A model generated the notes under the pieces. It searched no databases, had not been told where the DNA came from, and saw only the letters and a program-made list of their open reading frames with translations. Below, one piece after another: positions 16,789-63,663 of a stretch of DNA of 64,000 nucleotides. The DNA lies in NCBI GenBank assembly GCA_963826115.1, contig CAWGVS010000003.1, positions 128,001-192,000 of the forward strand, read 5' to 3'. Position 1 is the first letter of the stretch. Each line of letters begins with the position of its first letter. Source of the stretch: an uncultured Candidatus Rokubacteria bacterium (GTDB lineage Bacteria; Methylomirabilota; Methylomirabilia; Rokubacteriales; DASRDR01). Position numbers and translations under genes: made by a program.

Positions 16789-16837
16789 TGAGGCGATCCC
16801 GCCCCAGGTGTCGCATCAGTGGGACAGTCTGCCCGAG
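16789..16837. promoter_or_regulatory. candidate enhancer (UAS) sites
   Basis: TGAGGC-GATCCC-GCCCCA at 16789 and weaker TGGGAC-AGTCTG-CCCGAG at 16820; 122 and 91 bp before the promoter at 16911. Confidence 0.55.
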
Positions 16838-16910
16838 GAGCGCCAGGGCCCACGCTTTGCGGGGCCGCCAACGACCGGAGCCATGTCGCCATCGTCCGGC
16901 TCCTCGAGGC

Positions 16911-16926
16911 CGGCATCACCGTTGCA
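16911..16926 (+). promoter_or_regulatory. sigma54 promoter (USP-OsmC)
   Basis: CGGCAT-CACCG-TTGCA; GG and GC cores intact. Confidence 0.75.
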
Positions 16927-17006
16927 CACCACACCAGGAAGAGGTTCCGAAGTCATACCGGATGCCGGCCGAGGCGGGCCGCTGAGGCCGTGCACACGAG
17001 GGATCC

Positions 17007-17954
17007 ATGACGACGATCAATCGAATCCTCTACGCGACGGATCTTTCCGCCACCTCGGAGGCGGCCTGGAGCGAGGCACGGCGACTCGGGCGCCTGTTCG
17101 ACGCCGAGATTGTGATCCTGCACGTGGTCACGCCGCCGGTCGTCTTCCCCGTCGAGGGATACTTCCCACCGGACCTTTACCAGGAATACCTTCGAAGCGC
17201 ACAACACGACGCGGAAAGAGGACTGGATCGCTTGCTCGGCAGCGTGGCGGGCTCGGGCCTCAAGGTCCGCCTCCGCCTCGAAGAGGGACCGCCGGCTCCA
17301 CGGATCCTCGACATCGCAAGCCAAGAGGCCGCCGACATTCTCGTGGTCGGCACGCACAGCCGCACGGGTCTCCGACGGGCCATGCTCGGGAGCATCGCCG
17401 ACCGGATGGTCCGCCAAGCGAGGTGCCCGGTCTTGACGGCCCGGCCTCAACCGGATGCTGCGCCTCCTGTCCAGATTCGTCGGATCTGCTACGCCACCGA
17501 CTTCTCCCCGACCGCCCGCGCCGCCTGGTCGTGGGTGGTCGCGATCGCCGGTGCCGCGAACGCCGAGGTCGACCTCGTTCACGTCACGTTCGAGCCGGTG
17601 GCCGACCGTCACATGCCCGCGGAGATGACCGGGCGCATGGCCCGGTTCCTCCGCGAGCAGGGCCACATGGAAGTCGAGCGGTTCCTGCAGCGGTCCACGC
17701 TGCCACGTGAGCGGATCCACGTGCACCTGTCCCCCGGAGTCCCGGGGGAGCAGATCGTCCATCGCGCTCTGGAGCGAGCCGCCGATCTCATCATCATGGG
17801 TACCCACGGCTGGTCCGGGGTCGTTCGCTGGGTGCTCGGTTCAGTCGCTCACTACGTGATCCAGACCGCGCCGTGCCCGGTGCTCACCATCGCGCCGGCC
17901 GGGGCACCGGGGGAATCGGGCGCAGGGACAGCGGCGGCGGGGATCACGCGATGA
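17007..17954 (+). CDS. universal stress protein, tandem domains
   Basis: Two ILYATDLS/ICYATDFS...GTH..G..LGS...CPVL repeats. Confidence 0.95.
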   Translation: MTTINRILYATDLSATSEAAWSEARRLGRLFDAEIVILHVVTPPVVFPVEGYFPPDLYQEYLRSAQHDAERGLDRLLGSVAGSGLKVRLRLEEGPPAPRILDIASQEAADILVVGTHSRTGLRRAMLGSIADRMVRQARCPVLTARPQPDAAPPVQIRRICYATDFSPTARAAWSWVVAIAGAANAEVDLVHVTFEPVADRHMPAEMTGRMARFLREQGHMEVERFLQRSTLPRERIHVHLSPGVPGEQIVHRALERAADLIIMGTHGWSGVVRWVLGSVAHYVIQTAPCPVLTIAPAGAPGESGAGTAAAGITR

Positions 17955-18379
17955 AGCCCATGCCCCATCACTACACGGTCCGGATCGCCGGGGGCCCGAG
18001 CGGTCCCGCGCTCGCCATGGCTGACGGTCTGCCCGACCTCGGAAGCGCACCGCCCCCCGAGTTCGGTGGCCCCGGCGGCGCGTGGAGCCCGGAGCACCTC
18101 CTGTTGGCTGCCGTGGAAGCGTGCTTCCTGTTCACCCTGCGAGCCGTCGCGCGGGCCTCGCACGTCGAGTTCGAGACGTGCGAGGTGACCGCCGAAGGGA
18201 CCGTCGACCGCACGGACGGTGTGACGCGCTTCACGGACATCCTCCTGCGGCCGCGTCTCAGGCTCGCGACCGGGACGGATCCGGACCGGGCACGGCGGGC
18301 CATGGAAAAGGCCGAGAAGGCGTGTCTCGTCTCGGCTTCGCTCGTGACGCCGGTCCGGCTCGAGGCTGAGCTCGCCTAG
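17951..18379 (+). CDS. OsmC family protein
   Basis: PPPEFGG, WSPEHLLLAAVEAC, AEKACLVSASL; ATGA overlap with the USP gene. Confidence 0.9.
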   Translation: MKPMPHHYTVRIAGGPSGPALAMADGLPDLGSAPPPEFGGPGGAWSPEHLLLAAVEACFLFTLRAVARASHVEFETCEVTAEGTVDRTDGVTRFTDILLRPRLRLATGTDPDRARRAMEKAEKACLVSASLVTPVRLEAELA

Positions 18380-18433
18380 CGCTGACCAGCCTTCTGTCCC
18401 CTCGCCCGTCTCGCGCCGCCAACGCCCGTCGCG

Positions 18434-23009: not shown

Positions 23010-23025
23010 TGCAATGGCTCTGCCA
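23010..23025 (-). promoter_or_regulatory. sigma54 promoter (adaptor-ABC operon, possibly including ZIP)
   Basis: Minus strand TGGCAG-AGCCA-TTGCA. Confidence 0.78.
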
Positions 23026-23079: not shown

Positions 23080-23117
23080 GGGGGTCCCGGCTACCCACCC
23101 GAGGCACGATCGCCCCA
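23080..23117. promoter_or_regulatory. candidate tandem UAS
   Basis: CGAGGC-ACGATC-GCCCCA at 23100 (92 bp from the promoter) and weaker GGGGGT-CCCGGC-TACCCA at 23080. Confidence 0.55.
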
Positions 23118-24022: not shown

Positions 24023-24102
24023 GGGGACCCCTCCATCCTCATGGGTTTCGCAACCGCGGTGCCGACAGGTGCGTTCGGCCAACCCTGGCTCCAGATCCGG
24101 CG

Positions 24103-25260: not shown

Positions 25261-27267
25261 TCAGGCCGCGCCGGTGCTGAACGGGTGCAACGCCGGGAGC
25301 ATCCGCGTCTCGGCGGCGGTGATGGGCCGCACCGCTTGCGTCTCATCGAACCAGATGTACTCGTCGAACTGGTACGGCAGTGAGGCGTGGAAGTAGTGGC
25401 TCTGGAGCTCCGTGTCCGGCCGGTAGACGACGCCGACGGCGCGCTCGAGTCGAGAGGACGCCAACTCCGCGCGCACCTCCTCGCGCGCCGGAGCGCGGAG
25501 ATGCAGCCGGAAGGCCTTGACGCCCGAGTCGTGACACAGGCGCTCGTAGCTCTCGGGATGGGCGGGCCGCAGCTTCATGATCCGCATCGGCCCATCCCAA
25601 TCATGCGCGGCGGCAACTGTCCCGTGATCGGTGCCGAACCCGACCAGGGAGACCGCGTCGCCGAATCGTTCCCGGCACAGCTGTCCGAGATTCAGCTCGC
25701 CGCGCGCGCTCATCTCGGTCGCCCGCGCGTCACCGAGATGCGAGTTGTGCGCCCACACGACGGCTTTCGAGGATGGCCCGTGGAACGCGAGCAGGCGCTC
25801 GAGCGTGTCGAACATGTGCCGGTCGCGCTGATTCCAGGACTCGGCCGCTCCGTAGTACATCGACCGGTAGTAGCGCTCGGCGTCAGCGACGAGGCGCGCA
25901 TTCTGCACGGCGTCGAGGAACCGCTCGCCGTCCCGTTCCGCATAGTCGAGCTCCCGGCTGAGCATGTCGCGCAACATCGCCACCGCCTCCTTCTCGCAGA
26001 CGCGGTAGCGCCCGCTGATGGCGGCACGCCCATAGGCTTGCGGATCGGCCTGCCAGGGCGTCAAGCAAGAGTACCGCTCGCGGGCAAGGCGGGCGGCCGG
26101 CGGATCCACCCGCTCCAGGTACTCGAGCACGGAGCGAATCGACGCGAACAGACTGTACAGATCCAGGCCGTAGAAACCGGCCTGCCGCGTCGGCTCGTGG
26201 GCCTCGGCGTTGAAGACCCGCAGCCACTCGACGAAGCCCCACGTCTCGTGGTTCCGCCACATCCAGGTCGGAAACCGCGCAAACACCGACTCCTCGGGAC
26301 GGTGCCCATCCGGAAGCGCCTCGACGTAGCGATTGACGCGGCGCGCATCCGGCCAGTCGGCCTCGACCGCGACGATCCGGAACCCGCGGGTGCGGATGAG
26401 CTCCTGGGTGATGCGAGCGCGCATTCGGTAGAACTCGGAAGTGCCGTGCGTCGCTTCACCGATCAGGACCAGTCGCGATTCGCCGAGCCGCTCGAGCAGC
26501 GCGCCGAGATCCTGGCCATCGATCGATGCGAGCGGCTCGGCGACTTCACGCAGGAGGTGAACCAAGGTGCCTGGACGGCTCAGGGTCTGCGCGGGACGCC
26601 CGTTCCACTCGGTCGGCTCTGCCGTCCAGCCCTGCGTCCCAATCAGCGGCACGAAGCGCACGTCGCCGAGCTCTTCCTCGCGCAGCCGGCCATCCGCTTC
26701 CCGGGTCACCCGGAGCAGGCGTTGAACGCTTCGGCCCTCCCCTACCGGAATCACGAGACGCCCGCCGGGTGCCAGCTGGTCCAGCAGCGCCTCGGGGACT
26801 TTCGGGCCACCTGCCGCGACGACGATCGCGTCGTATGGGGCATGCTCGGGCCAGCCGAGCGTGCCGTCACCATGCAGCACGAGGACGTTCGAGAATCCAA
26901 GCCGGGCAAGACGTTCGGTCGCGACGCGGGCCAGCTCCTCGTGCCGCTCGACCGTATAGACCTCGCGAGCGATCCGGCCGAGAATCGCCGCCGCGTAACC
27001 AGAGCCCGTCCCCACCTCCAGCACGCGATCCCCGGGGCGAAGGGCCGCCGCCGCGGTCATGAGCGCGACGATGTAGGGCTGCGAGATCGTTTGCCCCCGC
27101 TCGATCGGCAGGGGCGCATCCGCATACGCGAACTCCTCGAGCTTCGGCGGTAGGAACGCCTCCCGCGGGACATTCCGCATCGCCTCGAGCACGGCCGGGT
27201 CACGGACGCCTCGAGCGGCGATGTGGGCACGAACCATGCGCACTCGTTCGTCGACCAGGTTCATCAT
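25261..27267 (-). CDS. protein-L-isoaspartate O-methyltransferase fused to an erythromycin-esterase-like domain
   Basis: QTISQPY, LEVGTGSGY, APYDAI followed by IGEATHGT, VEADWPD, FPTWMWRN, WAHNSHLGDA. Confidence 0.92.
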   Translation of the reverse strand: MMNLVDERVRMVRAHIAARGVRDPAVLEAMRNVPREAFLPPKLEEFAYADAPLPIERGQTISQPYIVALMTAAAALRPGDRVLEVGTGSGYAAAILGRIAREVYTVERHEELARVATERLARLGFSNVLVLHGDGTLGWPEHAPYDAIVVAAGGPKVPEALLDQLAPGGRLVIPVGEGRSVQRLLRVTREADGRLREEELGDVRFVPLIGTQGWTAEPTEWNGRPAQTLSRPGTLVHLLREVAEPLASIDGQDLGALLERLGESRLVLIGEATHGTSEFYRMRARITQELIRTRGFRIVAVEADWPDARRVNRYVEALPDGHRPEESVFARFPTWMWRNHETWGFVEWLRVFNAEAHEPTRQAGFYGLDLYSLFASIRSVLEYLERVDPPAARLARERYSCLTPWQADPQAYGRAAISGRYRVCEKEAVAMLRDMLSRELDYAERDGERFLDAVQNARLVADAERYYRSMYYGAAESWNQRDRHMFDTLERLLAFHGPSSKAVVWAHNSHLGDARATEMSARGELNLGQLCRERFGDAVSLVGFGTDHGTVAAAHDWDGPMRIMKLRPAHPESYERLCHDSGVKAFRLHLRAPAREEVRAELASSRLERAVGVVYRPDTELQSHYFHASLPYQFDEYIWFDETQAVRPITAAETRMLPALHPFSTGAA

Positions 27268-27330
27268 TTCACTCCGCCTCGGGAGCCCGGCCAAGGAACG
27301 CCGGCCATCCGGTCGGCGTCCCGGGGACGC

Positions 27331-31706: not shown

Positions 31707-31755
31707 TGCGGACTGCCCGCCCCACACGGGGCAGCGATGGGACACCGCCCGGACC
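31707..31755. promoter_or_regulatory. candidate UAS shared by divergent promoters
   Basis: TGCGGA-CTGCCC-GCCCCA at 31707 (79 bp before 31786); TGGGAC half-site at 31738, the same 31-bp offset as 16789/16820. Confidence 0.5.
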
Positions 31756-36695: not shown

Positions 36696-36713
36696 TGGGG
36701 AGGGACCGCCTCT
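36696..36713. promoter_or_regulatory. candidate UAS
   Basis: TGGGGA-GGGACC-GCCTCT, 78 bp before the promoter at 36774. Confidence 0.5.
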
Positions 36714-36773
36714 GCTGAGGCACGGGCGGGACAGCGAACGTCGCGAATCGCCTTTGTTTCCGTCGCTTTCCTC

Positions 36774-36789
36774 TGGCACTTCCGTTGCA
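36774..36789 (+). promoter_or_regulatory. sigma54 promoter (hpf-USP-groEL)
   Basis: TGGCAC-TTCCG-TTGCA preceded by a T-rich tract. Confidence 0.82.
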
Positions 36790-43254: not shown

Positions 43255-43291
43255 TGGGGCGAAGCACGCCCGCTGGGGCAGAGCCGCCCCA
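43255..43291. promoter_or_regulatory. candidate tandem UAS
   Basis: TGGGGC-GAAGCA-CGCCCG (43255) and perfect TGGGGC-AGAGCC-GCCCCA (43274), 19 bp apart; 97 and 78 bp before the promoter. Confidence 0.68.
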
Positions 43292-43351
43292 ACTGAGGCG
43301 CCGGGGCGTCGTTGGAGGCTAGCAAGCCCTGCTTCGCGGGGGTTAGCACAG

Positions 43352-43367
43352 TGGCACCATGGATGCA
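43352..43367 (+). promoter_or_regulatory. sigma54 promoter (USP-CBS-tdh-kbl)
   Basis: TGGCAC-CATGG-ATGCA; GG and GC cores intact. Confidence 0.72.
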
Positions 43368-47256: not shown

Positions 47257-47925
47257 GTGACCGGGCGACCGGATCCGGTGACCGCGCCATCGGGAGCGGC
47301 CCCCGGGCGAACGCCCCCGGGCAAGTCCGCCCCGGGGATCGATCGGACGCGGGAGCAGACTCCCGCCTCCGGCGCCGTGAGCCTATGGCTGGACACCTAC
47401 GAGGACATCTTCTCGGACTTCGATCCGCGCCCCTATGGTCAGCGCGCCTTGTCCGAGGACTTCATCGCCGAGGCCAAGCGCGCGGTCCGAGATCGCCGCG
47501 ATGACGTGCCCGAACTGCGCTTCCTGGTGCCGACGCAGGTGCGCGACCACAACGACGAAGCCACCATTCGGAAGCGTCTCCGCGAGCACTTCCGGAGACA
47601 CGCCGATCGGCTCAGACGCGAGCGCCGGCGATCCATCTGGGGGAGCCTCGGCATCGCCGCGGCAGGGTTCGGGGTCATGACGGCGTCGGCGCTGCTCCGA
47701 CGACAGCCGGACACCGTCACCCTGACTGTCCTCCATGTGCTCCTGGAGCCTGCCGGGTGGTTCGCGGTGTGGTTCGGCCTGGATCAGCTCTTCTACGGAA
47801 CCCGGGAGCTCGCCCGCGAGCACGCCTTCTACCGGAAGATGGCCCGCGCCGACGTCGTCTTCTCCGCCTACGCGGACGAGGGACACGGCGAGGTCTCGGC
47901 GACCGAGACGAATCGGACCGAGTAG
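47257..47925 (+). CDS. hypothetical membrane protein
   Basis: LWLDTYEDIFSDFDPRP..RALSEDF, two C-terminal TM helices, EPAGWF. Confidence 0.78.
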   Translation: MTGRPDPVTAPSGAAPGRTPPGKSAPGIDRTREQTPASGAVSLWLDTYEDIFSDFDPRPYGQRALSEDFIAEAKRAVRDRRDDVPELRFLVPTQVRDHNDEATIRKRLREHFRRHADRLRRERRRSIWGSLGIAAAGFGVMTASALLRRQPDTVTLTVLHVLLEPAGWFAVWFGLDQLFYGTRELAREHAFYRKMARADVVFSAYADEGHGEVSATETNRTE

Positions 47926-47949: not shown

Positions 47950-47986
47950 TGGGGCGCCGGTGCCCCGCTGGGGCGACCACAACCCG
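47950..47986. promoter_or_regulatory. candidate tandem UAS
   Basis: TGGGGC-GCCGGT-GCCCCG (47950) and TGGGGC-GACCAC-AACCCG (47969), 19 bp apart. Confidence 0.65.
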
Positions 47987-48071: not shown

Positions 48072-48087
48072 TGGCATCGGCGTTGCA
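48072..48087 (+). promoter_or_regulatory. sigma54 promoter (USP-ppsA)
   Basis: TGGCAT-CGGCG-TTGCA. Confidence 0.82.
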
Positions 48088-51164: not shown

Positions 51165-51201
51165 TGGGACGCCGCCGCCTCACTGGGGTGACGGAGGGAC
51201 G
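51165..51201. promoter_or_regulatory. candidate tandem UAS
   Basis: TGGGAC-GCCGCC-GCCTCA (51165) and TGGGGT half-site (51184), 19 bp apart; 98 and 79 bp before 51263. Confidence 0.55.
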
Positions 51202-51262: not shown

Positions 51263-51278
51263 TTGCACGGTCCTTGCA
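51263..51278 (+). promoter_or_regulatory. degenerate sigma54-like promoter (CBS-glgP)
   Basis: TTGCAC-GGTCC-TTGCA; GG core altered, but the UAS pair lies at the usual distance. Confidence 0.45.
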
Positions 51279-53542: not shown

Positions 53543-53935
53543 CTACCGAGCCGAGCCGTCGGTCGATCCGGGCGTTTCGTCCCTCAGAAGACGCTCCACA
53601 GCCTGCCGGAAAGCGGCGTTCGCGAACGGCTTCGCAAGGAACGTGTCGACCCCGATCTTCTTCGCGGCATCCCTCGTGCTGACGGAATCGTCGGCGCTGA
53701 TGAGGAGCACCGGGATCGGCGGGACGCGGGTACGCGCATGCCGTGCCACCACGAGTCCATCAGGTCCAGGCAACCGCAGATCCGTCACGACGAGGTCGGG
53801 AGCCTCCCGGTCGATGACGGCGATCGCACCCGCGGCCGTGCTCGCGCTCAGAGGGACGTGCCCGAGCGGCCGGAGGAGTCGCTGGCAGTTCGTCACCAGG
53901 TCCGGCTCGTCGTCCACGACCAAGATGGTTGCCAA
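53543..53935 (-). CDS. single-domain response regulator
   Basis: ILVVDDE, TDLRLP phosphoacceptor, LAKPF; likely TTG start after GAGG. Confidence 0.9.
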   Translation of the reverse strand: MATILVVDDEPDLVTNCQRLLRPLGHVPLSASTAAGAIAVIDREAPDLVVTDLRLPGPDGLVVARHARTRVPPIPVLLISADDSVSTRDAAKKIGVDTFLAKPFANAAFRQAVERLLRDETPGSTDGSAR

Positions 53936-53959
53936 GATGTGATGCCTCACTGAACGGAA

Positions 53960-53975
53960 CGCAATCGAGGTGCCA
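53960..53975 (-). promoter_or_regulatory. sigma54 promoter of the receiver gene
   Basis: Minus strand TGGCAC-CTCGA-TTGCG. Confidence 0.8.
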
Positions 53976-54035
53976 ATCGTCGTGGGTGCGATTCAGCTCT
54001 CCACGCCCCGCCCGCCAATCCCGGACCCCGCGGGA

Positions 54036-54053
54036 TGGGGCATCATCGGCCCG
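54036..54053. promoter_or_regulatory. candidate UAS
   Basis: TGGGGC-ATCATC-GGCCCG, 78 bp from the minus-strand promoter. Confidence 0.55.
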
Positions 54054-54146
54054 ATCGAGGCGCGCGGGCCACAGAGGCGCGCAGGGAGCCGCGACCGGCG
54101 ATCCGGACTTGACGCGGCCCTGGCCACCCGGAAGAATGGCATCGGA

Positions 54147-55853
54147 ATGGCGGACGGCAAGCCGAGGGCACGGGAAGCGTCCAGTCCGGCCGGGCGCCAA
54201 CGGCGCGGGAGCGGAGGAACTCACTCCGGCGCGCTCCCGGAAGGGGCATCCCGCAACCCCTCGGCGCTGGCCGATGCCGCTCTGGAGAACTCCCCTCTCG
54301 GCATCGTCATTGTCGACCACACCGGACGGATCGTGCGGGCCAACAGTCGTCTGGACGACATGTTCGGGTACGCACGGGGCGAGCTCGCCGGCGTGGTGCT
54401 GGAGACCCTCCTGCCCGAGCGCTTCCGCCCCAGCCACGTGCGGCACCGCGCAGGCTTTTTCAGCGACCCCCGGGTCCGCCCCATGGGACTCGGCCTCGAC
54501 CTCATGGCCCGTCGCAAGGACGGTGGTGAGTTCCCCGTCGAGATCAGCCTGAGCTTCATCGAGGCGGAGGAAGGTCTCCTCGCCCTCGGCTTCGTCACCG
54601 ACATCACGCCGCGCAGGAACGCGGAGCGGCGACTCCACGCGGAATTCCTGGTGACGCGCGTGTTTACGGAGCCTTACGGAGCGAAGGATCTCCCCACGAG
54701 CCTACTCCAGGCGCTGTGCGAGAGCCTCGACTGGGAGCTGGGCGAGCTCTGGCGCCCAGACGGCGAGGTGCTGCGATACGAGGTCGGATGGCATCGACCC
54801 GAGCTCGACACGAGTGAGTTCGACGCCTTCAGCCGCGAAGTCGTCTTGCCACGCGGAACTGGGCTGGCCGGCAGGGCCTGGGAGACGGAGCGCACACTCT
54901 GGATGGGGATCGACCGGGGTGCGAATCCCCGGTCCGCGGTTGCGGCGAAGATCGGGCTCAGGTCCGGCTACGCGGTCCCGATCGTCGGGGGCAGCGCAGT
55001 GACCGCCGTCGTGGTGCTCCTCAGCCGGGAGCCGCGTGAGCTGGACGAAGCGCTCCTCGCCATGCTGACCGACATCGGCAGCCGGATCGGCCAGTATCTC
55101 GATCACCGGCGCGTCGAGGTGGAGCTCCGGCACCAGCGCGAGGTGCTCTATCAGACCGAGAAGCTCAGCGCCCTCGGCCGTCTCGTGGCCGGGGTCGCCC
55201 ACGAGATGAACAACCCCCTGGGCATCATTTCGTCACGGATCGAGCTGATGCTGGGCGAGGCGGAGGGCCAGGCCTTCCCGGCCCAGCATCTCGAGGACTT
55301 GAAGGTGATCCACCGCAACGTGCTGCGCGTGGCGGGGGTCGCCCAGGCCCTCCGGTCGTTCGCCCGCCAGTCCACGGGAGAGCGGCGCCCGGTCGACCTG
55401 AACGCGGTGGTCGCGGAGACGCTCCTCCTCGTGGGAAAGCCGCTGAGCACGGACAACATCCGCGTCGTGACGGGGCTCGACCAGACCCTCCCGTCCATCC
55501 TCGGCGACGCGAACGCGCTCCAGCAGGTCTTGCTGAACCTTCTCGCGAACGCGCGTGAGGCCATGACGGGTGAAGGCGAGATTCGCATCCAGTCCGGGCG
55601 CGACCCGGCACGGAGCGGGCGGGTCCGTCTCGTCGTGACGGATACCGGACCCGGGATCCCGGCGGCGCACCTCCCCCACCTGTTCGAGCCGTTCTACACG
55701 ACGAAGCCCTCCGGAACCGGGCTCGGGCTCGCGGTGAGCTACGGGATCGTCCAGAACCACCTCGGCACGATCGACGTCCACTCCATCCCAGGCCAGGGTG
55801 CGACCTTCACCCTGAGCTTCCCAACCCTGGACGATGCCGCGGGGTCCGCGTGA
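54147..55853 (+). CDS. cytoplasmic PAS-GAF sensor histidine kinase
   Basis: PAS (LLPERFRPSH...RKDGGEFPVEISLS), GAF (GLAGRAW), H-box AHEMNNPL, N/G1/F/G2 boxes; no TM helix; start uncertain. Confidence 0.93.
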   Translation: MADGKPRAREASSPAGRQRRGSGGTHSGALPEGASRNPSALADAALENSPLGIVIVDHTGRIVRANSRLDDMFGYARGELAGVVLETLLPERFRPSHVRHRAGFFSDPRVRPMGLGLDLMARRKDGGEFPVEISLSFIEAEEGLLALGFVTDITPRRNAERRLHAEFLVTRVFTEPYGAKDLPTSLLQALCESLDWELGELWRPDGEVLRYEVGWHRPELDTSEFDAFSREVVLPRGTGLAGRAWETERTLWMGIDRGANPRSAVAAKIGLRSGYAVPIVGGSAVTAVVVLLSREPRELDEALLAMLTDIGSRIGQYLDHRRVEVELRHQREVLYQTEKLSALGRLVAGVAHEMNNPLGIISSRIELMLGEAEGQAFPAQHLEDLKVIHRNVLRVAGVAQALRSFARQSTGERRPVDLNAVVAETLLLVGKPLSTDNIRVVTGLDQTLPSILGDANALQQVLLNLLANAREAMTGEGEIRIQSGRDPARSGRVRLVVTDTGPGIPAAHLPHLFEPFYTTKPSGTGLGLAVSYGIVQNHLGTIDVHSIPGQGATFTLSFPTLDDAAGSA

Positions 55854-55889: not shown

Positions 55890-56438
55890 TCAGAGCTTCA
55901 GCGGCGGGATCGAGCCGTGGCCCGGCGCCGTCAGTTGGGGGGGCCCGGGCGGTGCCAGGAGCAACGAGAGCACGCCCGACTCCAGGTTCCGGTCCACGAT
56001 CGTCGTGACGCGCCGGATCAGCTTCAGCATCCGCACGTTGTCCCCCAGGACGTAGGCCCGGAGACGGTCAATTCCCTTTCCCTTCGCATAGTCGACCAGC
56101 TCCCCGAGCAGCAGCGTCCCGAGACCCCGGCCCTGCCACCGATCCTCGATGACGATGGCGATCTCGGCCTCCCGGGCCCGCTCGTCGTAGATGTAGCGCG
56201 CGACCCCGATCAGGTCGCCCTCCGGGCCGATAGCGGCGATCGCCATCCGTCGATCGTAGTCGACGTTGGCCAGGATGTGCGCCCAGTTCGGCGGCAGCCG
56301 GCGCGTCACCGTGAAGAATCGCTGGTAGGCGGTCTGCGGGCTCAGTCGCTCGTAGAGGGCCGTCAGCGCGGGCTCGTCCCCGGGATGGATCGGCCGCAGG
56401 GCGACCTCGGTGCCATCCGCCAGCGTGACGGCTTTCAT
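55890..56438 (-). CDS. GNAT N-acetyltransferase (Pat/Pka GNAT-domain-like)
   Basis: TLADGTEVALRPI, RLSPQTAYQRF, EAEIAIVIEDRWQGRGLG, N..ML. Confidence 0.88.
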   Translation of the reverse strand: MKAVTLADGTEVALRPIHPGDEPALTALYERLSPQTAYQRFFTVTRRLPPNWAHILANVDYDRRMAIAAIGPEGDLIGVARYIYDERAREAEIAIVIEDRWQGRGLGTLLLGELVDYAKGKGIDRLRAYVLGDNVRMLKLIRRVTTIVDRNLESGVLSLLLAPPGPPQLTAPGHGSIPPLKL

Positions 56439-56475
56439 GGGGCAGGAGCGCCCCACCGACCCGGTCAATGCCCCA
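56438..56475. promoter_or_regulatory. candidate UAS overlapping the GNAT start
   Basis: Perfect TGGGGC-AGGAGC-GCCCCA at 56438 (91 bp before the promoter) and a second GCCCCA half-site 20 bp on. Confidence 0.65.
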
Positions 56476-56528
56476 CTGTCGGCCTGAGAGCCCGCGCATA
56501 TCCCACGATCCGGCAGGCTTTTCTCTTC

Positions 56529-56544
56529 TGGCATCGCAGTTGCT
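56529..56544 (+). promoter_or_regulatory. sigma54 promoter (aeRF1-like operon)
   Basis: TGGCAT-CGCAG-TTGCT after a T-rich tract. Confidence 0.82.
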
Positions 56545-56740: not shown

Positions 56741-57874
56741 GTGGCCCATGCCATGACGCTTGCCGAACAAATCGCACGCTTGTCGAAGCTGGAACAGACC
56801 GGTGCACCGGTGGTGAGCGCTTACCTGAACACGCAATGGACGGACGAGCACCAGCGCGAGCGGACGCGGCTCTTCGTCAAGGGCGAAATCCGCCGCGCGC
56901 GGGCGACAGGTCTGGCTGGCCTGGCGAAGGCCCTCGACTGGATCGAGGCGCAAGCGGAGGCGATCCTCAGCCCGAGCCACGCCAAGGCCCACGGCGTCGC
57001 GCTCTTCGCCTGCCCCGACGTCGGCCTCCGGGAGATGATCTCGGTTCGGGCGCCCCTGGAGAACATGGTCGTCGTGGGCGATCGGCCTTTCCTCGGCCCG
57101 CTCGCCGCCGCGCTGGCGGAAGCTCCTCCCCTGCTGGTGGTGTTCGTCGACGAGGAGAGCGCGCGACTGATCCCCGTTCTCGATGCCGGACCTGGCGAGG
57201 AGATTCACCTGAACAGCGAGGTGCCCGGCCATCACCGGCGTGGCGGCTGGGCGCAGCTCGCCCTGGGCCACTATCAGCGCCACATCGAGGAGCGCCGCGG
57301 CCGGCATCTCGAGGCGGTGGCGGAAGCGCTCGGCCGAGTCGTGGAGGAGCACCATATTGAGCGGATCGTGATCGGCGGGACCAGCGACAGCACGGCGGCC
57401 CTTCGCCGAGCGCTGCCCGCGGCGGTCACCGCGAGGGTCGCGGGGGTCGTGTCCGGGCGTCGACATGAGCCGGCAAGCGAGCTCGTCGCCCGGGCCGTTG
57501 AGCTGATCGGCCGCGTCAACACCGAGGAGGTCGCGGCTGCCGTCGATGGGCTCCTGACCCAGGCGGCCAAGGGTGGCCATGCTGCGGCGAGTCTCGAGGG
57601 CGTGCTGGAAGCCGTGCAGCGCGGGGCCGTCGATCGGCTCTATCTCCTGCGGACCTTCCGGGAGCGCGGGCGAGCGTGCACCACATGCCCCGCCCTCCAG
57701 CCGGGAGACGTGGCGACATGCCGGATATGCGGCCAGGCTTCGATCGCGGTCGAGCTCGACGAGGCAATGGTGAGCCGGACGATCGCGGCGGGCGGAGGCG
57801 CCACGATGGTCGACGCCCACGCCGCGCTGGGGGCGGTCGGTGGCGTCGCCGCTCGATTGCGCTTCGTCTCGTAG
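56741..57874 (+). CDS. bacterial aeRF1-superfamily protein with C-terminal Zn ribbon
   Basis: PVVSAYL, GVALFA, HRRGGWAQ loop, CTTC/CRIC, terminal GGVAARLRF. Confidence 0.85.
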   Translation: MAHAMTLAEQIARLSKLEQTGAPVVSAYLNTQWTDEHQRERTRLFVKGEIRRARATGLAGLAKALDWIEAQAEAILSPSHAKAHGVALFACPDVGLREMISVRAPLENMVVVGDRPFLGPLAAALAEAPPLLVVFVDEESARLIPVLDAGPGEEIHLNSEVPGHHRRGGWAQLALGHYQRHIEERRGRHLEAVAEALGRVVEEHHIERIVIGGTSDSTAALRRALPAAVTARVAGVVSGRRHEPASELVARAVELIGRVNTEEVAAAVDGLLTQAAKGGHAAASLEGVLEAVQRGAVDRLYLLRTFRERGRACTTCPALQPGDVATCRICGQASIAVELDEAMVSRTIAAGGGATMVDAHAALGAVGGVAARLRFVS

Positions 57875-57883
57875 CGGTAGCCC

Positions 57884-59194
57884 GTGCGGTCTCCCGTTCG
57901 TGTCCTGATTCTGGGAGCCGCGGGTCGAGACTTCCATAACTTCAACGTTGTCTACCGGGACGACCCGGCGACGGAGGTCGTGGCGTTCACGGCGGCCCAG
58001 ATCCCGGGCATCTCGGGTCGCCGATACCCGCCGAAGTTGGCCGGGCCGCGCTATCCGGCCGGTATTCCGATCGAGCCGGAAGAGGCCCTCGACAGGCTGG
58101 TCCGCGAGCATACCGTCGACCTCGTGGTGCTTGCTTACAGCGATCTCAGCCACGAGCAGGTCATGCACCTCGCGAGCCGCGCGCTGGCGGCCGGTGCCGA
58201 CTTCGCCCTCCTGGGGCCGCGGAGGACCATGCTCCGCTCCGCGCGGCCGGTCGTCGCCGTCACGGCCGTCCGGACCGGTTGCGGGAAGGGAGCCGTGAGT
58301 CGACGGGTCGTGGACATCCTCCGGGGGCGGGGGCGGCGGGTCGCGGTCGTGCGGCACCCGATGCCTTACGGCGATCTCGGAGCCCAGCGGGTCCAGCGCT
58401 TCGCCACGCTCGCCGATCTCGACCGAGCCGAGGTGACGCTGGAGGAGCGTGAAGAGTACGAGCCGCACCTGGAGAAGGGGGTGGTGGTGTGGGCCGGCGT
58501 CGACTACGCGGCGATCCTGGCGCGCGTGGAGGCCGAGACGGACGTCATCGTCTGGGACGGCGGGAACAACGATCTGCCCTTCTTCACCCCCACGATCCAC
58601 ATGTGTCTGGTCGATCCGCACCGCTCCGGGCATGAGTCGCGTTTCCATCCCGGGGAGACGAATCTCCGGCTTGCGGATGTCGTGATCGTCGTCAAGGAAG
58701 ACACGGCGGACCCCGTCCAGATCGAGGCGGTCAGAGTGGCGGCTCGGTCCCTCAATCCGCGCGCCCGGCTCGTCGACACACGGTTCCCCCTCCGGGTCGA
58801 GGCACCCGAGCGCCTCCAGGGCCGCCGGGTGCTCGCCGTCGACGACGGCCCCACCCTGACGCACGGCGGCCTGCCGGCGGGGGCGGCCGAGCTGGCGGCC
58901 CGACGATTCGGCGCGATCCTGGTCGATCCCCGCCCGTACGCTCGGGGCAGCATCCAGCGAGTGTTCGACGACTACCCGATGCTCGGAGCCGTTCTCCCCG
59001 CCGTCGGCTACGGTGCCCAGCAAATGGCGGAGCTTCGCGCCACGATCGACGCGGTGCCATGCGATTTCGTCCTCCTGGGGACGCCGATCGATCTCGGCCG
59101 CGCGCTGGCGCTGCGCCATCCTGTGATCCGGGTGCGCTACGAGGTCGAGGAGGTCGGACGCCCGACCCTTGACGAGGTCCTCGGAGACCTCTAG
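57884..59194 (+). CDS. COG2403 P-loop protein (cDPG-synthetase-like / ArcE arginine-synthetase-like)
   Basis: GAAGRDFHNFN, FTAAQIP, RTGCGK, RHPMPYG, EEREEYE, WDGGNND, DGPTLTHG. Confidence 0.85.
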   Translation: MRSPVRVLILGAAGRDFHNFNVVYRDDPATEVVAFTAAQIPGISGRRYPPKLAGPRYPAGIPIEPEEALDRLVREHTVDLVVLAYSDLSHEQVMHLASRALAAGADFALLGPRRTMLRSARPVVAVTAVRTGCGKGAVSRRVVDILRGRGRRVAVVRHPMPYGDLGAQRVQRFATLADLDRAEVTLEEREEYEPHLEKGVVVWAGVDYAAILARVEAETDVIVWDGGNNDLPFFTPTIHMCLVDPHRSGHESRFHPGETNLRLADVVIVVKEDTADPVQIEAVRVAARSLNPRARLVDTRFPLRVEAPERLQGRRVLAVDDGPTLTHGGLPAGAAELAARRFGAILVDPRPYARGSIQRVFDDYPMLGAVLPAVGYGAQQMAELRATIDAVPCDFVLLGTPIDLGRALALRHPVIRVRYEVEEVGRPTLDEVLGDL

Positions 59195-59222: not shown

Positions 59223-60605
59223 TCAGGCCTTGATGCCGTGCTTGGTCAGCAAGCGATGAAGCGTCTTCCGGTCGATGCCGGCCGACTTCGCGGCCTGCGA
59301 GATGTTGCCCCCGTGTCGTCGGAGCAGGTCGGTCAGGTACCCCTGCGCGAAGGTATGCAGCCAGGCCTCGCGAGCCTGGGCGAGAGGCAGGTTCGTGCCC
59401 GGAATCGCCGGGCCCGGGCGACCTCTCCCGCGAATGTGGTCCGGGAGATCCCGGACCCGGATCATCGGCCCGTCCGTGAGCGCGCAGGCGCGCTCGATCA
59501 CATTCTGGAGCTCGCGGACATTGCCCGGCCAGGCGTGGGCCTCGAGGCGCGCGAGCGCCTCCGTCTCGATTCCCTCGAGCGGCCGCTCGCGGTTCCGCCC
59601 GTAGCGGCGCAGGAAATGGTGCGCCAGAAGGCCCACGTCACCTGCCCGCTCGCGCAGAGGTGGCAACATGATCGTGATCACATTGACCCGGTAGAAGAGA
59701 TCGTCGCGAAACTCGCCCTTCCGGACGAGCTCCGCAGTGTCGCGGTTGGTCGCGGACACGAGCCGAATGTCCACATTCACGAACTTGATCCCGCCGACGC
59801 GGCGGATCTGCCGCTCCTGGAGCGCCCGGAGAAGCTTCGACTGGAGCGCCTTGGGCAGCTCGCCGATCTCGTCGAGAAAGAGCGTGCCCCGATCGGCGAC
59901 CTCGATCATCCCCGGCTTGCTGCGGTCCGCACCGGTGAACGCGCCACGCTCGTGACCGAACAGCTCGGATTCGAGCAGGGCATCGGGCAGCGCGGCGCAG
60001 TCCACGGGAACGAACACCTCGGCGGCCCGCGCGCTCTGGGCATGGATCGCCCGGGCAATCAGCTCTTTCCCGGTCCCCGACTCGCCCTGGATCAGGATGT
60101 TGGCCTCGGATCGGGCCGCCTTCTGGACGAGCTCGAACACCGCCGTCATGACCGGGCTCTTGCCAATGACATTGTCGAACCCCGCGCGTGGCGCGAGCGG
60201 CTGGCGAAGCCGGCGATTCTCTTCGATCAGACGGCGCCGCTCGGCTGCGCGCTCGACGGCGATGCGGAGCACGTCATTGGACGGTAGTGGCTTCAACAGA
60301 TAGTCGAACGCCCCTGCCCGCATGGCGTCGACGGCAGACTCCACCGTCCCGTGCCCCGTAATCATGATCACCACGACGTCGGGATCGAGCTCGAGGGCGC
60401 GAGCGAGCACCTGCATCCCGTCGACCCGCGGCATCTTGAGATCGGTGAGAACGACGTCCGGGCACTCGCTCTCGAGGAGCGCCATCGCCCGCTCCCCGTC
60501 GGTCGCCGTGATGCAAGGATAGTCCTCACGGCCGAGGAGCCTTGCCCAGTTGGCGACGACGTCCGGCTCGTCGTCCACGATCAGTACTCGTGGCTTCGTG
60601 CTCAT
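59223..60605 (-). CDS. NtrC-family sigma54-dependent response regulator (bEBP)
   Basis: Receiver (VDDE, TDLKMP, LKP), Walker A GESGTGKE, intact GAFTGA, LFLDEIG, WPGNVREL, Fis-type HTH. Confidence 0.96.
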   Translation of the reverse strand: MSTKPRVLIVDDEPDVVANWARLLGREDYPCITATDGERAMALLESECPDVVLTDLKMPRVDGMQVLARALELDPDVVVIMITGHGTVESAVDAMRAGAFDYLLKPLPSNDVLRIAVERAAERRRLIEENRRLRQPLAPRAGFDNVIGKSPVMTAVFELVQKAARSEANILIQGESGTGKELIARAIHAQSARAAEVFVPVDCAALPDALLESELFGHERGAFTGADRSKPGMIEVADRGTLFLDEIGELPKALQSKLLRALQERQIRRVGGIKFVNVDIRLVSATNRDTAELVRKGEFRDDLFYRVNVITIMLPPLRERAGDVGLLAHHFLRRYGRNRERPLEGIETEALARLEAHAWPGNVRELQNVIERACALTDGPMIRVRDLPDHIRGRGRPGPAIPGTNLPLAQAREAWLHTFAQGYLTDLLRRHGGNISQAAKSAGIDRKTLHRLLTKHGIKA

Positions 60606-60674: not shown

Positions 60675-60917
60675 TCAGGCGGGAAGGTTCTCCGGGACCG
60701 CGAGCGTCGTGTAGTCCACGAACCCGTAGTCGACGGGTCGCTTGAGCTTCCAGACGTCCCGATCGGTGAGGAAGACCCAGGAGATGCGCGTCATGACCAG
60801 CGCGACGCCCGACGGCCGGAGAGCCGGATACGCGTCAGGGGACCGAAGGTCCGCGAGCATCGAGCGCGCCGGCTCATCGCTCGCCATGGTGTCGTCCAGC
60901 TTGCCAGACCCCCTCAT
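60675..60917 (-). pseudogene. N-terminal remnant of an Rv2004c-like APH/AAA_33 kinase
   Basis: TRISWVFLTDRDVWKLKRPVDYGFVDYTTL matches the family N-terminus, then stops after about 80 aa. Confidence 0.75.
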
Positions 60918-61297
60918 CCACCTCCATCCGTCACCAGCGGGGGTAAAACTCGTTTGATGGCATCGAGGAACGCCCCGTTCGAGAACGGCTTCGCCAGGTA
61001 GACCTCAGCGCCGCTCTCCGTCGCCGCCTGCCTCGTTTGGGGGGAGTCGTACCCAGTGATCAGGATCACCGGGATCGGCGGCACCTGGCGGCGGGCGTGA
61101 CGGGTCACGGCCAGACCGTCCGCCCCGGGGAGCCGGAGATCCGCCACGACCAGATCCGGCCGTTCCCGGTCGATCATCGCCATCGCGTCGGGCCCCGTGT
61201 GGGCCCGAAGGGAGGCGTGACCGATCCTCTGGAGAAGGCGTTCACAGTTCGCGACAAGATCCGGCTCGTCATCGACAACCAAGATGGTTCGAGGCAT
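60914..61297 (-). CDS. single-domain response regulator (paralog of 53543..53935)
   Basis: TILVVDDEPDLV.NC.RLL, DLRLPG.DGL, VPPIPV, LAKPF.N shared with the first copy. Confidence 0.92.
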   Translation of the reverse strand: MPRTILVVDDEPDLVANCERLLQRIGHASLRAHTGPDAMAMIDRERPDLVVADLRLPGADGLAVTRHARRQVPPIPVILITGYDSPQTRQAATESGAEVYLAKPFSNGAFLDAIKRVLPPLVTDGGG

Positions 61298-61317
61298 CGT
61301 CACCGCCATGCGATGAA

Positions 61318-61333
61318 AGCAATCAGGATGCCA
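61318..61333 (-). promoter_or_regulatory. sigma54 promoter of the receiver-remnant-bEBP operon
   Basis: Minus strand TGGCAT-CCTGA-TTGCT. Confidence 0.82.
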
Positions 61334-61394
61334 CTCCCGGCAGGGTGGACTGACACCCCAGCGGCCCTTGCCAGCCGCGCGCGCGGGCGCCCTC

Positions 61395-61431
61395 TGGGGC
61401 GCCGCCGTCCCTATGGGTGCCCATCGCCCCA
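61395..61431. promoter_or_regulatory. candidate tandem UAS shared by divergent promoters
   Basis: TGGGGC-GCCGCC-GTCCCT (61395) and TGGGTG-CCCATC-GCCCCA (61414), 19 bp apart. Confidence 0.68.
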
Positions 61432-61483
61432 CCAGTACCCTGACAGAGCGCTACCAAGCCTCTGAGTCCAGCCGAATCCGCGC

Positions 61484-61499
61484 TGGCACCGCCGTTGCT
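61484..61499 (+). promoter_or_regulatory. sigma54 promoter (cytochrome-ackA)
   Basis: TGGCAC-CGCCG-TTGCT. Confidence 0.82.
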
Positions 61500-61673
61500 C
61501 CCGGAGCAGTCTGACGATCAGCAGGGGCCCGGCCGGGCGAGGTACCATGCTGGTGACCGGTGGCGAGATCATGGCCCGCGCGGTCATCCGGGGCCGGTTC
61601 GAGATCGGGCTCGGCAACCAGCCTCACGCGCCTGCCGAAGCCGTGGATTCTCCACCCAGGGAACCCGGAGGAG

Positions 61674-62020
61674 ATGATGACGCGCGCCGAAATCTCCCGC
61701 ATTGCTCTGATCTGCCTGTTGGCCGCGGGTCTCTGGACTCATCGGTGACCCGGCTCGACGCGCAGAGCCGAGCGGCGCTCGTCACGCAGGGACGGCAGCT
61801 CTACACGGACAAGGGCTGCTACGGCTGTCACACGGTGGGGGCCACCGGGACGCCCATCGCCCCGGACCTCCGCCGCGCGGCCACCCGCTATCCGGAGGCC
61901 AGTCTGGCGCGGTGGCTGCGTGACCCATCCGCTCAGGAACCAACGCGCCACATGCCGAATCTCGACCTGAGCGAAGCCGAGGCGAGCGCCCTCGCCGCTT
62001 ACCTGGCCACGCTCCCGTGA
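61674..62020 (+). CDS. mono-heme cytochrome c; signal peptide apparently frameshifted near 61740
   Basis: GGAGGAG RBS + MMTRAEISRIALICLLAAGLW in one frame; CYGCH, APDL, WLRDP, HMPN in another (ORF 61547..62020). Confidence 0.75.
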
Positions 62021-62129
62021 GAGCGACGCCCGCGAGGGCGCGTCGACATGTCCACGACAGGCCATGCGGACAGGTTCCGCGTGTGGCCTGACGGCAGCCC
62101 ACAAGCTGATGGTGATCGAGGAGGGAACG

Positions 62130-62333
62130 ATGCCACGTCCACGAAGCCCGCTTCAGCCGCCCCGGTCGAAGAAGGCCGGTCAACCGCCTCAGGAGCTCGC
62201 GGTCAGCCCACGGGTTCGCCGACGACAGAAGACTGCCACGACTGCGGTCCGCAAGGACACGACGATCTCTCAGCCCGCGCAGGATCCTCGCGCGCGCTGG
62301 CCGGCGTCGAAGCCGAAGTTCTCGAAGCGGTGA
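62130..62333 (+). CDS. small basic low-complexity protein
   Basis: GAGGAGGG RBS; 67 aa rich in K/R/P; stop 20 nt before ackA. Confidence 0.6.
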   Translation: MPRPRSPLQPPRSKKAGQPPQELAVSPRVRRRQKTATTAVRKDTTISQPAQDPRARWPASKPKFSKR

Positions 62334-62352
62334 CGGTCTCCCCCGTCCGGCC

Positions 62353-63565
62353 GTGATCGTCCTGGCCCTGAACTGCGGGAGCTCGTCGCTCAAGTTCCAG
62401 GTCTTCGCCCATGACCCCGCGGCGTCGTCGGGAGATGCCCGGCGCCTCGCCCGCGGCGGCGTCGACCGCATCGGGGACGAGGCGACCCTCGCCTTCCAGG
62501 CGGAAGGAAGCCCGGCGACTCGGACGCGCGAGCCCATCCGGGATCATGAGGTCGCAGTCCGCCAGGTGCTCGGCTGGCTGGCCGCGGGCGGGGCGTCACC
62601 GCACGGAGACGCGATCCGGATCGACGCGGTCGGACACCGTGTAGTCCACGGAGGCGACCGCTTCAGGGAGTCCGTCCTGATCGACGCAGGACGTGCTGGA
62701 CGCGATCCGGGCGCTCGAGACGCTGGCGCCGCTCCACAACGCCCCGAGCCTCGTGGGCATCGAGGCCGCCCGAGCCGCGCTCGGCCCCGACGTCCCCATG
62801 GTCGCCGCCTTCGACACGACCTTTCACGCCTCGATGCCCGAGCACGCGTATCGCTATGCCATCCCCCACGAGCTGGCCCTGACGCATCGCGTCCGACGCT
62901 ACGGCTTCCACGGACTCGCCTACCGCTCGGTCCTTGCCCGCTACGCTCAGGTGGTCGGAGGGCCGCGCGACCGCGTCACCATTGTCGCGTTTCACCTCGG
63001 GAACGGCTGCTCGGCGGCCGCGATCAAGGATGGGCGCTCGATCGATACCTCCATGGGCCTCACACCCCTGGAAGGTCTCGTGATGGGGACCCGGTCGGGC
63101 GACGTCGATCCCGCGCTGATCGGCTATCTCGCGCGCGTGGAGGGCGTGCCCGCCCAGGAGGTCGAGCGGTGGCTCAACGAGCGCGCCGGGCTACTCGGCC
63201 TGTCGGGCCGGAGCCGCGACATGCGGGACCTGCTTGCGCACGAGGGGGACGACCCGCGGGCCCGGTTGGCGGTGGACGTCTTCTGCTACCGGGCCCGCAA
63301 GTACCTGGGCGCCTACCTGGCGACGCTGGGCGGGGCCGACGCGGTCGTGTTCAGCGGCGGCATCGGCGAGCACGCCCCCGCGGTGCGCGCCCGCATCTGC
63401 GCCGGGATGGAATGGTGCGGCCTGGTCCTGGATCCCGGGCGCAACGCCGCCGCGGTCGGGCGCGAGGCTCGCCTGACCCCCGACGGGGCCGCCCTCCCCG
63501 CCTACGTGATCCAGGCCGACGAGGAGCGGATGATCGCCCAGGATGTCGTGGAGCGGGTCGCATGA
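62353..63565 (+). pseudogene. ackA: acetate kinase with a +1 frameshift near 62689
   Basis: LNCGSSSLK and GHRVVHGG in one frame; LAPLHN, FDTTFH, RYGFHG, HLGNG, TSMGLTPLEG, GGIGE in the next. Confidence 0.9.
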
Positions 63566-63625
63566 AGCGGCGGATCCCGCTGCCGATGGCCGCCGTCGGC
63601 GGCTTCGCGGCCCTCGGGCTGGCCC

Positions 63626-63663
63626 TGGGGCACCGGCGGGCGGGCCGGTGCACGGACGCCTCA
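63626..63663. promoter_or_regulatory. candidate tandem UAS (degenerate)
   Basis: TGGGGC half-site at 63626 and CGGTGC-ACGGAC-GCCTCA at 63646; 113 and 93 bp before the promoter. Confidence 0.4.

Follow-up and report, generated by a model that had tools for sequence, protein, structure and literature searches.

A stretch of 64 kb from an uncultured Candidatus Rokubacteria bacterium (assembly GCA_963826115.1, contig CAWGVS010000003.1, positions 128,001 to 192,000; hereafter the window) raises the question of which protein reads the palindrome TGGGGC-N6-GCCCCA, which recurs upstream of sigma-54-type promoters. GC content is about 70% across the whole window, and everything to the right of about 8.4 kb is occupied by a gene island in which stress and energy-metabolism genes are abundant according to Pfam. 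An initial annotation had proposed the palindrome as an enhancer that is bound by an NtrC-type bacterial enhancer-binding protein (bEBP) encoded at 59226-60605 on the reverse strand. The motif is real, as its enrichment, position and phasing reveal, and comparisons of sequence and locus suggest that it is probably the upstream activating sequence (UAS) of a sigma-54 regulon, to which this activator would bind.

The motif and its position relative to sigma-54 promoters

The promoters anchoring this analysis belong to the -24/-12, GG-N10-GC class and were called by consensus only. With at most one mismatch, TGGCAC-N5-TTGC has 15 matches in the window, against 2.65 expected, a number that none of 100 shuffles reached, and these matches point toward gene starts. 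Orientation and downstream starts were inspected before candidates were kept; the resulting 15 comprise 13 of these 15 matches together with 16911 and 63739, which carry two mismatches each. The promoter-like matches 56401(-), which lies inside the coding sequence of a GNAT acetyltransferase, and 52490(+), which lies inside a phosphorylase-like gene and has no site, were dropped. A position weight matrix (PWM) built from the kept candidates added 11276(-), outside the range of the initial annotation, bringing the strong matches to 16.

The two perfect copies of TGGGGC-N6-GCCCCA reported initially, at 43274 and 56438, are present, and none occurs in any of 100 shuffles. Allowing two mismatches, the window holds 14 such 18-mers against 8.3 expected, a count that 6 of the 100 shuffles reach. 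This window-wide number is nearly uninformative, and the signal emerges only once promoter position is considered, with 10 of the 14 preceding a sigma-54 promoter match by 70-122 bp; the promoter-upstream zone used for the counts makes up 2.8% of the window. When all 5-, 6- and 7-mers were counted in the -160 to -30 zones of the 15 promoter matches, with no motif supplied, TGGGGC/GCCCCA ranked first among 1857 hexamer pairs (17 of 64 copies; binomial p 1.3e-12), followed by CTGGGG and TGGGGCG variants. In the window as a whole this hexamer is otherwise under-represented, with 64 copies where equally composed hexamers have a median of 95.

A de novo search with our own expectation-maximization (EM) motif finder, run on the upstream regions of the 15 promoter matches, returned TGGGGCGgcccCGCCCCA with a palindrome constraint and GTGGGGCGgtCagGCCCCAT without it. 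At equal settings, its log-likelihood ratio of 199.9 bits exceeds the values obtained from 15 shuffles (134.8 +/- 4.1) and from 15 sets of random real segments of the window (158.2 +/- 9.9, maximum 172.2). Enrichment over GC-matched sequence, which the initial annotation had set as a test of its claim, is thereby borne out against shuffled and real segments alike. A looser form of the motif can be written as TGNGGY-N6-RCCNCA. A literature search with the motif string returned eukaryotic C/EBP primer matches only.

By counts that are partly circular, 11 of the 12 best hits of the motif PWM in the window precede sigma-54 promoter matches by 78-122 bp, and a site with a PWM score of at least 9.7 is found in this range at 14 of the 16 strong promoter matches; independent of PWM training are the pair 11352/11276 and other loci only. 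Anchored on the promoter, the 15 upstream regions contain no conserved columns past the promoter itself, and those in the seven regions chosen for 78-79 bp spacing are circular. The near-matches first listed were of mixed quality: 36696, 43255, 47969 and 63646 carry three mismatches each and 11575 and 51184 five of 12 each, whereas the others have zero to two. The 18-mer at 51184, 79 bp from promoter 51263, retains the 5' half-site TGGGGT only and ends GGGACG. The match at 11575 had been named as the site of promoter 11654, an assignment that fails on its five mismatches; the best PWM score within 50-160 bp upstream of this promoter is -1.2.

The positional bias expected for an enhancer was found, and the sites are also helically phased with respect to the promoters. 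A distance of 78-79 bp separates six sites from their promoters, namely, 11276(-), 31786(+), 36774(+), 43352(+), 53961(-) and 61319(-). The spacing class described earlier for seven promoters thus exists, with six sites and a different membership, in which 11654 has no site, 51263 has its strong site at 98 bp and 11276 is added. Six of 12 sites in one 2-bp bin were not obtained in any of 20000 uniform simulations, and when the two sites common to divergent promoters are omitted, four of 10 remain in the bin, as in 34 of 20000 simulations. The remaining site-promoter distances are 89-93, 98-102 and 122 bp. The distances fit a period of 10.9 bp (Rayleigh R 0.73; P 0.003 for 14 window pairs), and P falls below 0.0002 for 24 pairs, which include two weak promoters and the three related loci L001-L003 described below; when each site contributes a single distance, the best-fitting period is 14.0, at the edge of the tested range, and R at 11.0 is 0.69. 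We read this periodicity as a helical-face constraint, a stronger form of the "fixed spacing" of the initial annotation. A divergent layout also recurs, in which the site is 78-79 bp from one promoter and 100-102 bp from its divergent partner; it is seen at 31707, at 43274 and 54036, where the second promoters are weak, and at 8718 in L002.

Tandem dyads occur, with a step of 19-20 bp and weak second sites. Around primary sites, the PWM score averages highest at +20 (-5.7, compared with a global mean of -16.8), and a second site scoring at least 2 is located at +/-19 or 20 bp for seven of 12 primary sites, a score that 0.23% of local control offsets reach (binomial P 4e-12). The pairing proposed initially is confirmed in this way, and its step, given as exactly 19 bp, has to be relaxed to 19 or 20 bp. 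At four of the 12 sites, and also near 23100, GGGAC(A/G) stands in direct orientation 31-32 bp past the start of the primary UAS (the four elements are at 16821, 31739, 36728 and 51196), where GCCCCA would be expected as one half of the second site on the promoter side; a post hoc estimate gives about 0.04 such cases by chance. AGGGAC/GTCCCT is likewise an enriched hexamer (6 of 23 copies). This element may be a variant half-site or may belong to a second factor, and GGGACR ends are not explained by a symmetric dimer.

The activator, its relatives and the competing explanations

The activator combines a receiver domain (Response_reg, 1e-27), a sigma-54 AAA+ domain (Sigma54_activat, 2e-69; GAFTGA at 59945) and a Fis-type helix-turn-helix (HTH) domain (HTH_8, 2e-6), and no other protein in the six-frame translation of the window carries GAFTGA. 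Its 120 listed homologs, all at least 74% identical, come from metagenomes, one being named Candidatus Rokubacteria, and the JGI automatic names of its orthologs are 'AtoC', 'HydG' or 'NtrC family'. Among the 25 NCBIfam equivalogs listed, it falls below the cut-off of every one, and it reaches the level of none of the named families AtoC, PrsR, NtrC, NtrX, GlrR, ZraR and LuxO (AtoC, the best, 464.5 bits against a cut-off of 714, PrsR 436.4 against 502.6, NtrC 390.8 against 558.6) in full-length alignments, and therefore bears no established name. Its closest solved relatives by sequence are NtrC4 and NtrC1 of Aquifex, then LuxO, NtrC and ZraR; these relatives, together with the domain set, place it in group 1 of the bEBPs. 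In this group, according to an excerpt of PMC7175178, D domains act in pairs to bind the UAS, of which there may be one or more, and inhibition is relieved by phosphorylation. A tandem site precedes promoter 61319(-), which presumably serves the activator operon.

A scan of genome contigs yielded 80 loci, of which L001, L002 and L003 encode close relatives of the activator (87, 77 and 77% identity), L004 encodes one of 58-60% identity, and 76, from other lineages, served as paralog controls. L001 is syntenic with the window and encodes a hibernation-factor-like protein, Hsp20, GNAT protein, kinase, CBS protein and phosphoenolpyruvate (PEP) synthase. Its sole promoter match is preceded, at 89 and 69 bp, by the two best PWM hits of its 12 kb (19.1 and 11.1), which stand 20 bp from each other; in its pairwise alignment with the window, the flanks diverge around a UAS, a second GCCCCA half-site and a promoter that are all conserved. 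Between the UAS and promoter 56529, the 10-bp block CGATCCGGCA (approximately 56506-56515) is identical in L001, within a spacer that has otherwise diverged. L001 is labelled as a Gemmatimonadota metagenome-assembled genome, and L002 and L003 are labelled as Methylomirabilota or Rokuibacteriota, a discrepancy that points to an unsure taxonomic label for the window or to a mislabelled bin; Hsp20 is present in L001 and L003.

L002 and L003 have other neighbours, namely, an NTP-transferase gene upstream and a 2-oxoglutarate dehydrogenase gene downstream of the activator, and contain a variant motif, CCTCA-c-TGCGGT-N6-TCCYCA, which precedes promoter matches by 70-102 bp; among these is the promoter in front of the gene upstream of the activator. 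The variant keeps the dyad and the 19-bp tandem register and changes half-site position 3. The HTH regions of these activators are nearly identical and the recognition-helix residues nearly invariant, and R451 is replaced by Ser or Val in L002 and L003 only; the co-variation of this residue with the motif, in two clades only, is suggestive. The promoter matches of the two loci (8818 and 17232 in L002; 8303, 8811 and 19582 in L003) mostly read TGGCTCG-N4-CTTGC, with TGGCTC rather than TGGCAC as the -24 element. When one criterion is applied throughout (PWM score of at least 9.5, 60-130 bp upstream), a site accompanies 10 of 14 promoter matches in the window, one of one in L001, one of five in L002 and five of eight in L003, where two overlapping promoter candidates have one site in common. 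At the 76 paralog loci it accompanies one of 118 promoter matches, and none of 61 at those with at least 64% GC.

The assignment of the motif to the activator is the most likely one, resting on an association that is circumstantial but consistent. Several points weigh against it. No rpoN is present in the window, and the genome surely encodes further activators outside it. Two good promoter matches have no site: within 50-160 bp, the best PWM score is 2.9 at 24050-24064(-) and is as low as stated above at 11654, and these promoters may depend on another activator or on the distant site 11352, or may be non-functional. The positional test weakens to three of nine sites (772 of 20000 simulations) when 11352 is omitted as well. 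The second sites are weak, with PWM scores of 2-7, and four of them end GGGACR rather than GCCCCA. The circularity of the best-hit and occupancy counts arises from a PWM and a promoter list that share one window. The comparison of related loci is based on three close loci, and L004 has no motif. Apparent frameshifts in ppsA and ackA, described in the last section, suggest indel errors, which render 78 versus 79 bp and 19 versus 20 bp insecure, such that a spacing difference of 1 bp may stem from noise in the assembly.

A real regulatory site could also be read by a different protein, either another enhancer-binding protein encoded elsewhere in the genome or a repressor or co-regulator of the island, with the local activator using other, unrecognised sites. 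The motif-activator assignment is by association only, within 64 kb of examined genome, and both the GGGACR ends of the four second sites and the conserved block CGATCCGGCA hint at a second specificity. The motif itself differs already at 77% identity. This alternative appears unlikely to us when the candidate in hand is considered, which has no rival activator in the window. The motif accompanies the clade of this activator in three of three close loci despite their differing neighbours and is nearly absent around the 76 paralogs (1 of 118). Moreover, a phased dyad with half-site centres 12 bp apart, positioned 80-125 bp upstream, would suit a dimer of a group 1 Fis-type HTH.

Two further explanations would deny the motif any role as an enhancer. 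The palindromes might be DNA or RNA hairpins, such as terminators or REP-like repeats, given that a GC-rich stem of 6 bp with a loop of 6 nt could fold and that site 47950 starts 25 bp past the stop of the gene ending at 47925. This is highly improbable, because across 20 aligned sites the arms are paired in 76.7% of cells, against 78.4% in shuffles, with one compensatory cell against 2.5 expected, and departures from the consensus break the pairing; it is the arm sequence itself, beyond mere pairing, that is conserved. Most sites are located between divergent genes or upstream of promoters rather than at 3' ends, no Rfam family matches the window, and helical phasing to promoters would be meaningless for a terminator. 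That the sites are chance products of 70% GC, picked by eye, is harder still to believe, even though the window-wide count of close matches is one that shuffles occasionally reach and several matches first listed carry three to five mismatches. The exact copies, the hexamer ranking, the EM likelihood, the PWM ranking, the positional bias and the phasing all oppose it, as do the independent recovery of the motif in L001 and the rarity of TGGGGC in the window relative to hexamers of the same composition.

A candidate circuit and its known counterparts

The motif is probably the UAS of the activator, whose presumed partner is the sensor kinase encoded 3.4 kb away, an ortholog of which adjoins the activator locus in L001. 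Its PAS domain (54252-54644) matches the heme-PAS domains of DosP (E 1e-12) and FixL (E 3e-9) in the PDB, the strongest match being 10jx, a 'multi-sensor histidine kinase' (E 1e-20). A His of this domain aligns with position 77 of the 807-residue DosP chain, and Met at chain position 95 of DosP aligns with Leu in the kinase. The aligned His is presumably the proximal heme ligand of DosP, and an oxygen, redox or gas signal is thus plausible for the kinase.

In the mechanism that we propose, activator dimers would occupy one to three adjacent dyads spaced 19-20 bp centre to centre, with the sites centred about 96 bp upstream of the start, or one, two or four helical turns further (taking the 15-mer to start at -26), and hence on one helix face relative to the -24/-12 promoter. 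The neighbouring PAS-GAF kinase would phosphorylate the receiver domain of the activator, which would assemble its ATPase ring on the tandem sites, loop to the sigma-54 polymerase and open the promoter. Sites precede the activator operon, both genes for receiver-only proteins and, weakly, the kinase gene; the circuit would therefore feed back on itself, driving its own activator operon, the two receiver-only proteins and perhaps the kinase, with positive autoregulation and possible phosphate sinks. Its output would comprise at least 14 promoters over approximately 53 kb, and with them at least six universal stress proteins (USPs), several CBS proteins, the Rv2629-like factor, a GroEL paralog, PfkB, an aldolase, PEP synthase, acetate kinase, two P-type ATPases and one efflux system. 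The binder, the phosphorylation by this kinase, the looping and the signal are all inferred.

As in NtrC, NtrC1, NtrC4, ZraR and DctD, the group 1 bEBPs with which it is compared, the activator possesses a receiver, an AAA+ domain with GAFTGA and an HTH domain, and its presumed sites match theirs in being dyads, often in tandem, approximately 80-150 bp upstream of -24/-12 promoters, with dependence on position or helix face. The half-site TGGGGC differs from that of NtrC, whose site we take to be TGCACC-N5-GGTGCA. Unlike NtrC, the regulon here includes no nitrogen-assimilation genes, and unlike the group 1 comparators, one activator apparently serves a cluster of at least 14 promoters within a single island. 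The AtoC and PEP-CTERM PrsR systems differ in gene content as well, no ato or PEP-CTERM genes being present near the activator, in addition to scores below the cut-offs. The kinase core resembles that of ZraS or FixL, where DosS and DosT would be the comparison with mycobacteria; unlike the FixL system, the partner regulator is of the NtrC type rather than the FixJ type, and the kinase contains an additional GAF domain.

The presumed target genes suggest a programme for low oxygen or dormancy. DosR of Mycobacterium tuberculosis, the regulator of such a programme, to which a CBS protein and alpha-crystallin also belong, is a NarL/LuxR-type protein that acts at sigma-70-type promoters, unlike the sigma-54 activator and -24/-12 promoters considered here. 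Excerpts of PMC7753917 list among the DosR-related genes seven USPs, the P-type ATPase gene ctpF, pfkB, Rv2629 and a GAF-domain kinase, and quote DosR sites with GGGAC half-sites, which differ from the present motif in sequence and spacing. Set beside these excerpts, the island offers a parallel at the family level only, with at least six USPs, two P-type ATPases, PfkB, CBS proteins and a factor resembling the Rv2629 family, to which L001 and L003 add Hsp20; proteins of the window also have weak PDB matches to Rv2626c (E 4e-6, CBS) and Rv2623 (E 1e-8). The likeness is one of analogy in programme and function, as far as gene content indicates, and not of homology of the switch or of membership. 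On this basis, we tentatively suggest, as a possibility that we do not favour strongly, a DosR-like hypoxia or dormancy programme run wholly through sigma-54, in which a heme-PAS/GAF kinase would act through one NtrC-type activator on at least 14 promoters with phased tandem enhancers in an island of about 53 kb, the genes of which include those for a ribosome hibernation factor, stress proteins and fermentative carbon metabolism. If true, the mycobacterial dormancy regulon would have a convergent equivalent, on different transcription machinery, in an uncultured soil lineage.

No paper linking Rokubacteria or Methylomirabilota, or this gene set, with sigma-54 was found in a search outside which most subscription journals lie. 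What is new is the motif and the regulon for an unnamed activator clade, as the mechanism is textbook and would be expected by a specialist. The motif, the spacing rules, the activator and the kinase provide a testable regulatory code for a phylum without a cultured representative or a described sigma-54 regulon. The pairing of motif and promoter could serve to trace the regulon through soil metagenomes and could help to predict the genes that abundant soil bacteria switch on when growth stops. In addition, the natural spacing variants (78, 89, 100 and 122 bp) constitute a series for studying the effect of the helical face of an enhancer on sigma-54 activation.

Features of the gene island

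The candidate sites, with the promoters and genes to which they are related, are collected in Table 1. Further members of the island, assigned by Pfam, include phosphoketolase, acetate kinase, PfkB, class I aldolase, PEP synthase and a phosphorylase-like protein among the metabolic genes, as well as two P-type ATPases, a BON protein, OsmC, a GroEL paralog and a MacB/HlyD efflux set.

Table 1. Candidate enhancer sites, promoters and genes of the window; distances run from the start of a site to the sigma-54 15-mer, and PWM denotes the motif score
Feature	Position	Strand	Motif match	Promoter and distance	Genes downstream and other details
Candidate UAS	11352..11369		PWM 9.7	79 bp upstream of 11276-11290(-)	P-type ATPase gene 8414-10996; not in training set
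Promoter match	11654..11668	+			Perfect sigma-54 consensus; upstream of DUF3300 and DUF2950 genes; no credible UAS within 50-160 bp
Candidate UAS	16789..16806		PWM 18.0, 1 mismatch	122 bp upstream of 16911-16925(+)	Tandem USP, OsmC
Candidate UAS	23100..23117		PWM 14.3	92 bp upstream of 23011-23025(-)	HlyD, MacB-like permease, ABC ATPase; ZIP transporter gene further along same strand
Candidate common UAS	31707..31744		31707 PWM 12.0; weak second site 31727 PWM 2.3	79 bp to 31786(+); 101 bp to 31609(-)	31786(+): USP, P-type ATPase; 31609(-) operon: NTP-transferase, BON, aldolase, PfkB, CBS, erythromycin-esterase fusion
Candidate tandem UAS	36696..36733		36696 PWM 14.7; 36716 PWM 5.0	78 and 58 bp upstream of 36774-36788(+)	Gene without assigned family, USP, GroEL paralog, acyl-CoA synthetase/acyltransferase
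Candidate three-site array	43255..43311		43255 PWM -1.4; 43274 perfect, PWM 17.0; 43294 PWM 6.8	97, 78 and 58 bp upstream of 43352-43366(+); weak divergent match 43175(-) at 102 bp from 43274	USP, CBS, epimerase, aminotransferase
Candidate tandem UAS	47950..47986		47950 PWM 14.8; 47969 PWM 5.7	122 and 103 bp upstream of 48072-48086(+)	USP, PEP synthase
Candidate UAS	51165..51201		51165 PWM 16.6	98 bp upstream of 51263-51277(+)	CBS, phosphorylase-like
Candidate tandem UAS	54036..54073		54036 PWM 10.7; 54056 PWM 6.4	78 and 98 bp from 53961-53975(-); weak match 54137(+) on kinase side at 101 bp from 54036	53961(-): receiver-only regulator
Candidate UAS	56438..56475		Perfect, PWM 19.1; extra GCCCCA half-site 56470	91 bp upstream of 56529-56543(+)	Rv2629-like hibernation factor, then 436-aa protein without family match
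Candidate tandem UAS	61395..61431		61395 PWM 14.3; 61414 PWM 4.9	Between divergent promoters: 79 and 98 bp to 61319-61333(-); 89 and 70 bp to 61484-61498(+)	61319(-): receiver, small ORF (open reading frame), activator; 61484(+): cytochrome c, acetate kinase further on
Candidate UAS	63626..63663		63646 PWM 11.0; weak 63626 PWM 2.7	93 and 113 bp upstream of 63739-63753(+)	USP
NtrC-type bEBP (activator)	59226..60605	-			460 aa; REC (receiver), sigma-54 AAA+ with GAFTGA, Fis-type HTH_8
Sensor histidine kinase	53970..55853	+			PAS, GAF, HisKA, HATPase (Pfam); presumed partner kinase
Receiver-only response regulator	53546..53953	-		Downstream of 53961(-)	Response_reg (Pfam)
Receiver-only response regulator	60917..61300	-		First gene past 61319(-)	Pfam; activator gene later on same strand
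baeRF-family protein	56741-57871				Aligned end to end with NCBIfam Rv2629-family ribosome hibernation factor, E 3e-22, below cut-off
~437-aa conserved protein (436 aa)	57884-59191				Directly after baeRF gene; no Pfam or NCBIfam match
USPs	17007, 31860, 37281, 43447, 48116, 63792				Pfam
CBS-pair proteins	27334(-), 42395(-), 44080, 51334				Pfam

The genes for the receiver-only protein at 60917..61300 and for the activator are probably co-transcribed, judging by their order and strand. The baeRF gene and the gene for the protein of approximately 437 aa are kept beside the activator in L001 (3889-5034 and 2566-3885). The long operon of promoter 31609 contains a fusion of a protein-L-isoaspartate O-methyltransferase with an erythromycin-esterase-family domain (25264-27330, reverse strand).

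The reading frame of ppsA switches at about 49480, where PPDK_N profile positions 2-259 and 257-317 are found in two overlapping ORFs, and that of ackA switches at about 62680-62700, with the N-terminus in the ORF from 62116 and the C-terminus at 62681-63565. No homopolymer is visible at either frame change, and the two genes are either pseudogenes or affected by assembly indels.

The perfect UAS at 56438 shares its last base with the start codon of the divergent GNAT acetyltransferase gene, being the A of its ATG (56434-56455), and this overlap is kept in L001 (5773-5790). Binding of the activator at this UAS would therefore cover the ribosome-binding region or the promoter of the GNAT gene.

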